DNA of 64,000 nucleotides. Origin: a virus (lineage: Duplodnaviria > Heunggongvirae > Uroviricota > Caudoviricetes). Below the pieces are notes generated by a model. The model made no database searches, was not told the origin of the DNA, and worked only from the letters and a program-made list of their open reading frames with translations. Made by a program: the position numbers and the translations under genes. This document shows, piece after piece, positions 60,412-63,640 of the stretch (position 1 is the stretch's first letter; every line of letters begins with the position of its first letter). The stretch spans positions 49,463 through 113,462 of IMG/VR virus record IMGVR_UViG_3300010365_001407; one strand, given 5' to 3'.

Positions 60412-60582
60412 TTAGTGTTCATATTCTACTTCTTCTATATAAGAGAATACTTCTTTGTTTATTTTAATTATTCTATCAAACATTTCTTGGTTCAAAATAG
60501 CATGGTGAACAACAAATATATTGATGTTGTAGTCATTTGCAAATGATTTAAGAAGCAATAATATAGAATCTATAGTCTGGTA
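60412..60582 (-). pseudogene. duplicated fragment of the 3' end of the SbcC/gp46-like gene
   Basis: Minus-strand translation YQTIDSILLLLKSFANDYNINIFVVHHAILNQEMFDRIIKINKEVFSYIEEVEYEH aligns to the last ~52 aa of the 61943-63640 product (...ILALLKSFSNDYNINIFVVHHAVLNEEMFDRIIRIEKNVFSTIEEVFIKD). Shares a 22/22-nt block ATTATTCTATCAAACATTTCTT with 61995-62016. Confidence 0.6.
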
Positions 60583-60817
60583 TTATTTTATTCAATTGTT
60601 GTTCTCTGTGTTCATCTATTGTGATAAATCTATCCTTTAAGTAATACTTGGTATTACCTAAATCATCTACTAATTTATATCCTGATGGATCAATATTTTT
60701 TATTACAAGATATATTTTACCTATAGTTAATCTTTCTGAATAATAGTATTTTAATCTATTACGTTCTCCATCATCAGGTATCATATCAACACTATTATCT
60801 ATACACACTACTTTCAT
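60548..60817 (-). CDS. hypothetical protein
   Basis: 89-aa ORF; its 3' end overlaps the duplicated fragment in another frame. Confidence 0.4.
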   Translation of the reverse strand: MKVVCIDNSVDMIPDDGERNRLKYYYSERLTIGKIYLVIKNIDPSGYKLVDDLGNTKYYLKDRFITIDEHREQQLNKIIPDYRFYIIAS

Positions 60818-60885
60818 TTATATTTTATAACTTTTTTACAAAAAGTTTCAATAAAAACACATAAATTAACTTTTTCAGTTTCAAA

Positions 60886-60900
60886 AGATAATATATACAT
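60886..60900 (+). promoter_or_regulatory. AAAGATAATATATACAT promoter-like motif
   Basis: Abuts the ATG at 60902. Confidence 0.35.
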
Positions 60901-60901
60901 T

Positions 60902-61975
60902 ATGAGAAAGTTAACAATAGAAGAATTTATAGAAAAGTCAAATAAAATACATAAAAAAAAGTATATTTATGATAGTGTTATTTATATAAATAATTCAACA
61001 AAAGTAATAATAGAATGTAAAGAACATGGTTTATTTGAACAATTACCTAATGCACATATGAGAGGTCAAGGTTGTTCAAAATGTAAGGGTGGTGTTAAAT
61101 ATAATTTAGAGGATTTTATAAAAAAGTCAAATAGTGTTCATAATTATAAGTATAATTATGAACACTCATTTTATGTTGATTCCTATACAATGATTGGTAT
61201 TGAATGTAGTGAACATGGATATTTTGAACAACTTCCTAATAATCATATGTCTGGACAAGGATGTCCAAAATGTATTGGTAAGTCATTATCAGATGATGAA
61301 TTATTAAAAAGGATGAATATGATTCATAATAATAAATATGATTATTCATTGGTATTATTCACTGGTATGCTAAATAAAGTCAAAATAATATGTTCAGAAC
61401 ATGGTATATTTGAACAAAAGTTATCAAATCATATAAATCTTAAACAAGGATGTATAAAGTGTGCAAATGTATATTTATCTAACAAAGAAGAGTTTATTAT
61501 AAAATCTGTAAATAAACATGGTAGTTTATATAATTATGATAATGTTATATACAAAAGTGCTAAAACAAATGTTGATATACTGTGTAAAAAACATGGTTTA
61601 TTCTCACAATCACCAACAAAACATTTATCAGGAAATGGTTGTCCTACTTGTAAATTATCAAAGGGGGAACATTCAATAATGATTTATTTAGATAGCAATA
61701 AAATAGATTATACATCACAATTTAGAATAAAAGGATTTAATTTAATATTTGACTTTTATTTACCAGATTATAACTTGTGTATAGAGTATGATGGATTACA
61801 ACATTTCAAACCAGTTAACTATTTTGGTGGAATAAATGCATTTAATTTACAAATAAAAAATGATTCTCTAAAAAATAAATATTGTTTAGAGAATCAAATT
61901 AAACTTTTGAGAATAAAATATACTGATTTTAAGAATATTGAACTAATCCTTAATGAAAACCTCTTCAATAGTTGA
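60902..61975 (+). CDS. homing-endonuclease-like protein: zinc-finger repeats plus C-terminal Vsr/DUF559-like nuclease domain
   Basis: 357 aa; at least five repeats of EHG-x-F-x-Q...H-x-x-G-x-G-C-x-x-C, then FDFYLPDYNLCIEYDGLQHF. Confidence 0.6.
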   Translation: MRKLTIEEFIEKSNKIHKKKYIYDSVIYINNSTKVIIECKEHGLFEQLPNAHMRGQGCSKCKGGVKYNLEDFIKKSNSVHNYKYNYEHSFYVDSYTMIGIECSEHGYFEQLPNNHMSGQGCPKCIGKSLSDDELLKRMNMIHNNKYDYSLVLFTGMLNKVKIICSEHGIFEQKLSNHINLKQGCIKCANVYLSNKEEFIIKSVNKHGSLYNYDNVIYKSAKTNVDILCKKHGLFSQSPTKHLSGNGCPTCKLSKGEHSIMIYLDSNKIDYTSQFRIKGFNLIFDFYLPDYNLCIEYDGLQHFKPVNYFGGINAFNLQIKNDSLKNKYCLENQIKLLRIKYTDFKNIELILNENLFNS

Positions 61976-63640
61976 GAACACATTTTTCTCAATTCTTATT
62001 ATTCTATCAAACATTTCTTCATTTAATACAGCGTGATGTACTACAAAAATATTTATATTATAATCATTTGAAAATGATTTTAGTAGTGCCAATATTTTTG
62101 ATATATTTTCTAAATCAATGCTTGAAAAAACCTCATCTAAAAATAATATATTAATATGTTTCTTTGTTCTTATCAACTTGAGGTAGGCTACAAGTATGGA
62201 AATATTTATTAGTTTGGTTTCCCCTGTGCTTAATGAATCATGTTCTACAACTGATCCAAGATTTTTAATCTCTGAACTAAATGTCTCATCTAACTTAACT
62301 TCAAATGGTAAACCCATTTTCTTAATATTCTCAGCAATAAAGTGATTAATAGGTTTAATAATACCTGCAATAATTGATTTCTTTGCACCATCTTCACTTA
62401 AAACTCTATTAAGTTCTTTATAAAACAATTCTTTTTCTTTACAAATTGTAGCACCATCATGACTTAATGATTTTTTCTCTTCTAAATCATCAATAGTATT
62501 TTGAAACTCTTGTGTATTTACAGATTCATTTACTTGAGAACCTTTCTTTCTACTTAGATTATCAATCTGTGTTTTATAGTTTTTAAGCAAGTAACTTAAA
62601 TCATTAAATGATTTAGTTGTTCCATCTGCAATCTCTTTTAATTTAGTCTGTTTTGCTCTTATAGAAGCTATATTGTTTTGTATCTCAACTAATATACCTT
62701 CATGTGAGTTCTTTTTCTCAACTAAAGAGTTTCTTAATGTGACAAAATGTTCTGATAAGAAATCTGTTGAACAAGTTGGACATTTGCCTGAATCATAAAG
62801 GTCAATTTCTCTCTGTACATTTCTAATATCATTTTGAGTAGAACTTAATTGTCTTTTCTCAATGTCTAGCTCATCAGAAAGGATTGTTTCTTTTTCTTTG
62901 ATTTTATCAACTTTTTCTTTAAGAAGTTTGTACTCATCTTTTTTAGAGTTCATTTCATCAGTAAGTGTTTCAATTTCTTGTTGTAAGTTTTCTTTTTCTT
63001 TTTCAATTGCTTTCTCAATAGACCTTTTAATAGAATCAATAGAATCTTCTAATGTTCTTATCTCTGAATCTAAAGAAGCTAATCTTATTTTATTGTTTTT
63101 GTTTATATCTTTAAGAATACCATTTAATATATTGATTACTTCTAAGTTAAATAACTTATCTAACAATAATTGTTTTTCTTCATTGGTTAATGATATAAAG
63201 TTTTTGAAGTCATTGATAGACATAGATATAAATGATTTGAATGTTTCAATATCTAATCCAATATACTTTTCAATTTTATCATCAATATTGGCTTTACCTG
63301 CCCTTTCATTAGGTATTCCATTTTCAATTAGGTTTAAAACACTTGGTCCTATTCCTCTTTGTATTTCAACATCTGTTCCATTTGCAACAAATTTTATTCT
63401 ATTCAATAATTCACCATTGATTCTGTTTGGCAATGAAGATAATTTATGCCATTTTTTTGCTTTACCTGACTTTACTTTTCCATAAAGTGAGTATTCAAAG
63501 GATTCAAGTAGTGAAGATTTACCATTACCATTGTTTCCTACAAGAAGAACTAATTCTCCTTTTTCTGTATTTAATTTTAATACTTGTTCATTGTTTCCAA
63601 AAGATTTATAACCTCTAATTCCTATTTCACTTATTAACAT
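61943..63640 (-). CDS. SbcC/Rad50-family ATPase, T4 gp46-like recombination nuclease subunit
   Basis: 565 aa; N-terminal Walker A LLVGNNGNGKSSLLES, long central coiled-coil, C-terminal signature SLSTGETKLINISILVA and Walker B ILFLDEVFSSID. Confidence 0.65.
   Translation of the reverse strand: MLISEIGIRGYKSFGNNEQVLKLNTEKGELVLLVGNNGNGKSSLLESFEYSLYGKVKSGKAKKWHKLSSLPNRINGELLNRIKFVANGTDVEIQRGIGPSVLNLIENGIPNERAGKANIDDKIEKYIGLDIETFKSFISMSINDFKNFISLTNEEKQLLLDKLFNLEVINILNGILKDINKNNKIRLASLDSEIRTLEDSIDSIKRSIEKAIEKEKENLQQEIETLTDEMNSKKDEYKLLKEKVDKIKEKETILSDELDIEKRQLSSTQNDIRNVQREIDLYDSGKCPTCSTDFLSEHFVTLRNSLVEKKNSHEGILVEIQNNIASIRAKQTKLKEIADGTTKSFNDLSYLLKNYKTQIDNLSRKKGSQVNESVNTQEFQNTIDDLEEKKSLSHDGATICKEKELFYKELNRVLSEDGAKKSIIAGIIKPINHFIAENIKKMGLPFEVKLDETFSSEIKNLGSVVEHDSLSTGETKLINISILVAYLKLIRTKKHINILFLDEVFSSIDLENISKILALLKSFSNDYNINIFVVHHAVLNEEMFDRIIRIEKNVFSTIEEVFIKD

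Follow-up and report, generated by a model that had tools for sequence, protein, structure and literature searches.

How does a phage gene come to have two different 3' ends, with a homing endonuclease gene lying between them? The question is raised by a locus in a 64,000-nucleotide (nt) stretch of Caudoviricetes DNA (hereafter the window; positions 49,463 to 113,462 of the IMG/VR virus record IMGVR_UViG_3300010365_001407), where a Rad50/gp46 (SbcC-like) gene of 565 codons (61943-63640, minus strand; Pfam SMC_N, AAA_23 and SbcC_Walker_B; PHROG 77) is accompanied by a second copy of its own end. The probable answer is that a mobile cassette sits inside the 3' part of this huge-phage gene and consists of a foreign version of the last ~95 codons, a Vsr-like endonuclease and a hitch-hiking small gene, which we call ORF89. 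The whole cassette (60575-62228) follows the native gene body (62229..63640, minus strand, codons 1 to ~471). It starts with a replacement 3' tract of 286 nt that we call X-type (61943..62228, minus strand), which encodes the signature motif LSTGE, Walker B, D-loop, H-loop and the stop. Convergent with this tract is a free-standing gene for a 357-residue homing endonuclease (60902..61975, plus strand), followed by a spacer from the endonuclease start to the ORF89 start (60818..60901) and by the ORF89 module (60575..60817, minus strand); this small phage gene, whose own stop codon is gone, makes up the right-hand end of the cassette. The right junction (60574..60575) corresponds to gene position 1535/1536 in codon 512, the predicted vicinity of a double-strand break, and beyond it lies the displaced native 3' end (60412..60574, minus strand; 53 codons plus stop), which we call the relic.

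The similarity between the relic and the gene end now in use is far above chance. Without gaps, 112 of 163 nt are identical (68.7%), rising to 76.6% over the 128-nt BLAST core, and 39 of the 53 encoded residues agree (74%); the blastn E-value of the match is 6.5e-23, as compared to about 0.1 for the best chance match within the window. A first-pass annotation, made from the sequence alone, had placed at 60412-60582 a diverged copy of the last ~52 residues of the SbcC-like protein with about 70% amino acid identity. The diverged copy stands, but its homology ends at 60574 rather than 60582, and its length and identity are adjusted to the values given above. The 22-nt identical block reported there was found again as the longest block shared by the two ends, and the ORF (open reading frame) coordinates bear out its 33-nt overlap between the endonuclease and gp46-like ORFs on opposite strands. 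Proper alignment, on which the annotation allowed that the similarity might vanish, upheld it with the identity and E-value just listed. ORF89, whose full frame (60548-60817, minus strand) lies between the endonuclease and the relic, had been overlooked. The hybrid gp46-like ORF is as long (565 residues) as its counterpart in the related locus L014, and none of its signature, Walker B, D-loop and H-loop motifs is disrupted.

Comparison with relatives tells which of the two ends is native. The nearest deposited genomes are those of the uncultured huge phages LR745206 (634,780 bp) and LR756502 (642,428 bp), and in both of them one uninterrupted gene spans the two halves of the window's split match. 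Among 19 further loci from IMG/VR, the closest are L014 (97% amino acid identity) and L003 (95%), in which endonuclease, ORF89 and second gene end are all missing and the gene order is gp46-o47/o79-o68-DnaJ. Their gene bodies are 96.4% (L014, gene positions 1-1400) and 94.8% (L003) identical to the window at the nt level, so that the insertion is a presence/absence polymorphism at the same locus. The mismatch rate between the window gene and L014 is ~3.5 per 100 nt over gene positions 1-1400 and climbs abruptly at position 1413 (window ~62228) to 27-34 per 100 nt, where it stays up to the stop; the first two 50-nt bins after the breakpoint contain 14 and 13 mismatches. The relic shows the opposite pattern, being 96-97% identical to the functional 3' end of L014 (L014 positions 6536-6698), with five differences, every one synonymous. 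Since L014 matches the relic at 96-97% and the current end only at ~70%, the end in use is of foreign origin, and the original end is the copy displaced downstream. The X-type tract of the window is 97% identical to that of L068, 89% to that of L051 and 71% to the end of L014. It starts (~1413) 123 nt upstream of the start of the duplication; native positions 1413-1535 have been lost and 1536-1698 persist as the relic.

Phylogenetic trees of the separate parts disagree in the corresponding way. The body tree puts the window beside L014 and L003; in the tree of the tract, its neighbours are all the other cassette carriers together with L011 and L012. In the relic tree, the window relic again groups with L014 and L003, and the relics of the other carriers group with the empty alleles of their own lineages. 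The first-pass proposal that the endonuclease arrived with a replacement 3' end and left the original as a relic is thus supported by the L014 comparison, and the alignment with endonuclease-free relatives that it recommended places the breakpoint at 1413 and the right junction at 1535/1536.

The locus occurs in six architectures. 19 loci (L001-L010, L013-L021) have a tract of the other type, which we call N-type, and no insert; L011 and L012 have the X-type tract alone. X-type tract, ORF89 and relic are found without the endonuclease in L045-L050, and with it in the window, L051-L053 and L068 (the tract of L053 being too short for N/X classification). L064 contains the endonuclease with a shortened relic and without ORF89, and L063, L065 and L066 contain the endonuclease alone. 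All nine endonuclease-bearing loci with a readable tract are X-type (among them the window, L051, L052, L063-L066 and L068), and the endonuclease is missing from all 19 N-type loci. The relics of L047, L049, L050 and L064 are shortened to 90-110 nt, and L064 has lost ORF89 and 60 nt of its relic; deletions are evidently frequent in this region, and the relic is dispensable, since it is truncated in these four loci.

Comparison of the window with L068 documents transfer of the cassette as one unit. The two loci are 82% identical in the gp46 body and 67-69% in the outer flanks, yet 97.2% in the X-type tract, 95.5% in the endonuclease, 96.4% in the spacer and 95.9% in ORF89 (all at the nt level); the cassette has therefore moved as a block, given that L068 shares it at 95-97% despite the 82% gene body. 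A similar discontinuity is seen between L045 and L049, whose gene bodies differ by 6.4% and which are nevertheless identical from about position 900 to the stop. An exact-match scan of IMG/VR for the cassette junction gave no match, and a scan of metagenomes for it gave one locus, L068.

The endonuclease contains the Pfam families DUF4379 and DUF723 (treble-clef zinc modules) and belongs to PHROG 559, 681 and 9084, a family labelled HNH or homing endonuclease. It has 4483 homologs at E <= 1e-10, some of which are called very-short-patch-repair endonuclease by the Joint Genome Institute (JGI). The N-terminal 250 residues consist of four Cys/His treble-clef zinc repeats (DUF4379/DUF723) rather than a NUMOD or helix-turn-helix region; in phage homing endonucleases, zinc fingers of the DUF723 type have been noted to serve in DNA binding (PMC10448857). 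In the AlphaFold model (predicted local distance difference test, pLDDT, 88.9), the four tandem zinc modules are followed by a C-terminal alpha/beta domain. A sequence search against PDB chains returned nothing useful. According to Foldseek, the best PDB match of the model is 3r3p_B, the catalytic domain of I-Bth0305I (probability 1.00, target template-modelling (TM) score 0.70, root-mean-square deviation 3.5 A), followed by Vsr (1vsr and 1cw0; probability 1.00), the E-values being weak (0.01-0.1) because of the multi-domain query. The model thus shows a Vsr-like (EDxHD) nuclease fold for the C-terminal domain. Residues E256, D284, E295, H301, D321 and K324, invariant in 40 homologs, are present in the window protein; because the invariant Cys, His, Asp and Glu positions are all retained, the enzyme is predicted to be functional.

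The endonuclease gene is free-standing, i.e. a separate ORF outside any intron or intein, on the strand opposite to gp46. Orthologs with 59-100% amino acid identity in L063-L066 and L068 are likewise convergent with gp46 and overlap its stop, and L051-L053 have a more diverged homolog (351 residues, 58% nt identity) at the same position. We considered whether the last 10 gp46 codons could be antisense endonuclease sequence and rejected this, as L066 and L045 show that the C-terminal tail is naturally variable; the endonuclease ORF simply enters this variable region from the opposite strand. We note that the gp46-like gene is also interrupted elsewhere: in L015 (2848-5001) and L021 (2830-5001) an insert of ~2 kb, with intein-like ends (GILSHN/S) and a separate 513-residue ORF with a Vsr-like C-terminus, splits it at the Walker A motif (codon 42), which matches the 'fractured gene' arrangement of a split intein plus Vsr-like endonuclease (PMC2677866). 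The gp46-like gene has been hit at two sites by the same endonuclease family.

ORF89 has 89 codons, of which the last eight (YRFYIIAS), together with the stop, are read into the relic in a different frame. The family usually ends in REQQLNKIL followed by a stop codon (P0010, P0012 and P0013); in the window this stop is gone. We found 13 ORF89 homologs, including some in unrelated contexts (L054, L059-L062), and no match to ORF89 in Pfam or PHROG. In L054 (1900-2700), an ORF89 homolog (85% nt identity) in an unrelated genomic context has also lost the normal stop of the family; it reads on past the same end point (ending in AATAATACCA) into flanking DNA of a different kind and is bracketed by TGCAAAAA...TTTTTGCA hairpins. 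ORF89 and its promoter may themselves form a module that is shuffled independently.

The spacer probably contains putative divergent promoter regions. The stretch GAAACT(A/G)AAAAAGTTAAT..TGTGTTTTTATTGAAACTTTTT within it is kept before the endonuclease in L063-L065; L066 has a degenerate form of it, and L051/L053 lack it. The right part of the stretch is found upstream of ORF89 in L045 and L054. Positions 60853-60896 resemble the gene ends of L045 and L012 (AACTGAAGTTAATATGGG) and could be a second, older displaced gene end nested in the spacer. We do not claim such a 'mini-relic': the segment is short and AT-rich, L063-L065 keep it too, just ahead of the endonuclease (L066 has it in degenerate form, L051 not at all), and it partly matches a common intergenic motif (ACGTGTTTTT) of L054 and L012.

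The right end of the cassette is the same wherever ORF89 stands beside gp46: the junction AATAATAC(C/A)AGAC^TATAGATTCTAT (the caret marks the joint) is found in the window, L045-L053, L058 and L068. Because it is identical throughout, the ORF89/relic joint arose once and has been reused by all carriers. To its right, relics become lineage-specific within 12-36 nt in three lineages (the window, L051/L058 and L045). Among 14 N-type and 9 X-type alleles compared, 10 alignment columns show fixed differences (no base shared between the two types), and six of these 10 (1534, 1535, 1540, 1542, 1543 and 1544) fall within 11 nt and span the junction. We infer that this cluster marks the vicinity of the predicted cleavage site at codon ~512, close to codon ~510, near which the first-pass annotation had placed the target. 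No target can lie wholly within native positions 1536-1698, as the enzyme would otherwise cut the relic, and hence it must be sought in the lost segment 1413-1535 or across the junction. Positions 1390-1412 are the sole long universally conserved block, and the foreign tract begins beside it.

These features suggest how the cassette would move. The endonuclease would cut cassette-free N-type alleles at or near 1535/1536, in GAAGG^TATAGATTCTAT, just past the Walker B/D-loop codons, and a co-infecting carrier genome would serve as the template for repair of the break. The left end would pair upstream of the 30%-diverged tract, 1390-1412 being the first universally conserved block; because it must pair there, the donor 3' tract would be copied in, giving a hybrid yet complete gene. 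The right end would pair directly with the donor relic, which adjoins the cut, and for this reason the recipient's own 3' end would survive as the new relic. The founding ORF89/relic joint may have been a single event of one-sided invasion followed by an illegitimate join; one-sided homing with illegitimate repair has been demonstrated experimentally in T4 (PMC2988022). As for what made the cut, and with it the relic, we infer that it was the endonuclease.

Several observations weigh against the proposal of a mobile endonuclease cassette. The cluster of fixed differences sits in a variable protein loop and covers only ~3 codons. L045-L050 have the X-type tract, ORF89, the relic and the same junction, yet no endonuclease, which means that either the endonuclease was lost there or the relic/ORF89 joint is older than the endonuclease. 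Conversely, L063, L065 and L066 have the endonuclease without ORF89 or relic, so the endonuclease can occupy the site without a duplication. Finally, the modules of the cassette differ in history or age: between carriers, nt identity is 93-98% for ORF89 (third codon positions ~90%), far higher than for the tract (74-89%) or the endonuclease (58-90%).

Alternatively, illegitimate recombination might have put an X-type end plus ORF89 into an N-type gene with no part played by this endonuclease, which would have entered later at the stop codon, the block then spreading by ordinary or break-stimulated homologous recombination. We regard this sequence of events as a possible but distinctly less favored explanation. 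In its favor, L045-L050 have tract, ORF89 and relic without the endonuclease, and their gene end (EVNMGNY plus stop) is much like the one that occurs naturally in L012, an X-type locus free of the cassette (EVNMGG plus stop); loci with the endonuclease alone are known, and ORF89 is younger than the other modules or was exchanged more recently. However, a random joint is not expected at the densest cluster of fixed N/X differences, and in three lineages the right-hand exchange ends 12-36 nt from the junction, as a break there predicts. Beside the endonuclease, all endonuclease loci moreover retain the promoter stretch of ORF89, be it only as a degenerate trace, and therefore share ancestry with the ORF89 carriers, and loss of the endonuclease is plausible in a region where deletions are common (L064, L047 and L049).

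A further idea, which we think improbable though worth stating, is that ORF89 and not the endonuclease is the actively spreading part. It is based on the conservation of ORF89 at 93-98% nt identity even between carriers whose endonucleases and tracts are only 58-74% identical, and on its presence with the relic where there is no endonuclease. If so, ORF89 could be either selected cargo or a small factor that is selfish or promotes mobility, the displaced gene end would be a built-in homology arm, and different endonucleases would merely co-occupy the site.

The relic might alternatively be a separate small gene, 48 codons long if read from a TTG, that is conserved for a function of its own, as the first-pass annotation had allowed, and its open frame without internal stop and the exclusively synonymous differences from L014 are compatible with that. 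We find this very hard to sustain: no separate gene of this kind exists in 21 cassette-free relatives, the fragment is seen only beside ORF89 or the endonuclease, no more than 90-110 nt of it are left in the four loci listed above, and a synonymous-only pattern is expected if the divergence arose while the segment was part of a working gene. Tandem duplication within the genome followed by divergence, or an assembly artefact, would account for two same-orientation copies ~1.5 kb apart but is already contradicted by the data and has almost no probability left, as a single relative matches one copy at 97% and the other at ~70%, close counterparts of the diverged copy (89-97%) exist in other phages, and the same architecture was independently assembled in L051, L052, L053 and L068.

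The closest counterparts of the arrangement are the mitochondrial 'gene hybrids' of fungi, i.e. Allomyces macrogynus atp6 and Glomus atp6, atp9, cox2 and nad3 (PMC3630166). There, too, the native body continues in frame into a foreign C-terminal segment, an endonuclease ORF comes next and the native C-terminus lies downstream; the native copy is 91-98% identical to relatives (97% here) and the inserted copy 64-81% (~70% here). The hybrids differ from the window in being found in an organelle instead of a phage genome, in carrying LAGLIDADG or GIY-YIG instead of Vsr-like endonucleases, and in having the endonuclease co-oriented or in frame, whereas here it is on the opposite strand and overlaps the gene stop. 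The window also has an extra passenger gene, ORF89, as the right end.

Among phages, the free-standing endonucleases of the T4 type (SegB, SegG and MobE; PMC2988022, PMC2790892 and PMC2330249) likewise adjoin a conserved gene, vary in presence among close relatives and are accompanied by a foreign flanking tract (intronless homing with co-conversion); the distant cleavage by SegG has a parallel in the cut predicted here ~160 bp from the endonuclease gene. In the T4-type cases the flanking DNA is replaced and no duplicate is left, whereas here the downstream flank is kept as a relic, because the element lies inside the gene. One-sided homing in T4 (PMC2988022) combines homology on one side with a microhomology junction on the other, as we propose for the founding ORF89/relic joint, although the T4 case is an engineered laboratory system and ours is deduced from a natural junction. 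In Aeromonas phage Aeh1 (nrdA/mobE; PMC3045599) a free-standing endonuclease gene also lies within an essential phage gene that retains its function, but there two gene pieces are assembled, while here a complete replacement end is supplied. As to the enzyme, I-Bth0305I (PDB 3R3P) is the prototype of the EDxHD family, which has free-standing members (PMC3239194; 'fractured genes', PMC2677866). The window protein shares its C-terminal nuclease fold (top PDB match), and acidic and histidine residues are conserved between the window protein and its homologs. I-Bth0305I has a NUMOD/helix-turn-helix DNA-binding part (PMC3239194) in place of the four zinc modules, which are known here from sequence and model, and the gene in the window lies in neither an intron nor an intein. 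In the literature library searched, no phage case of a gene end duplicated next to a homing endonuclease came to light, which is absence of evidence only; no biochemically characterised member of the zinc-finger/Vsr-like endonuclease family was found either.

Other mosaic features are found in and around the locus. Downstream of the relic (60042-60403, minus strand) lie o47 (glycine-rich, collagen-like) and o79 (zinc-ribbon), which vary among close relatives: o47 is absent in L014, and different genes occupy the place in L001 and L002. A second homing endonuclease gene, of the LAGLIDADG type with N-terminal Myb/SANT-like repeats, lies between o68 and DnaJ (58702-59787, minus strand); L068 also has it; L014, L003 and L051 do not. 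In empty genomes the stop of o68 overlaps the start of DnaJ, and this ~22-nt overlap occurs twice in the window (flanks 58514-58714 and 59824-59845). The first ~200 nt of DnaJ are ~30% diverged from L014 and the rest 2-7%; the diverged start looks like a co-conversion tract. By its divergence profile, the segment 57014-58014 is another local mosaic patch, differing from L014 by 23-58% per 100 nt between flanks that differ by 2-8%; it covers a plus-strand gene of 217 residues (57353-58006) and the end of a gene of 1802 residues.

Introns/inteins and split genes are two ways in which a homing endonuclease can persist within an essential gene of a phage, and the cassette represents a third: the element supplies a replacement for the part of the gene that it displaces, a solution that was documented in fungal mitochondria and is seen here in a phage. 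It also yields a prediction of the target site, GAAGG^TATAGATTCTAT at codon 512 of the Rad50-like gene, which bears on a very large family of zinc-finger/Vsr-like endonucleases (the 4483 homologs mentioned above). The predicted sensitive and resistant alleles and the predicted half-site in the relic exist in nature and can be used as controls. The locus is also an example of the way in which endonuclease cassettes make essential genes of huge phages mosaic.

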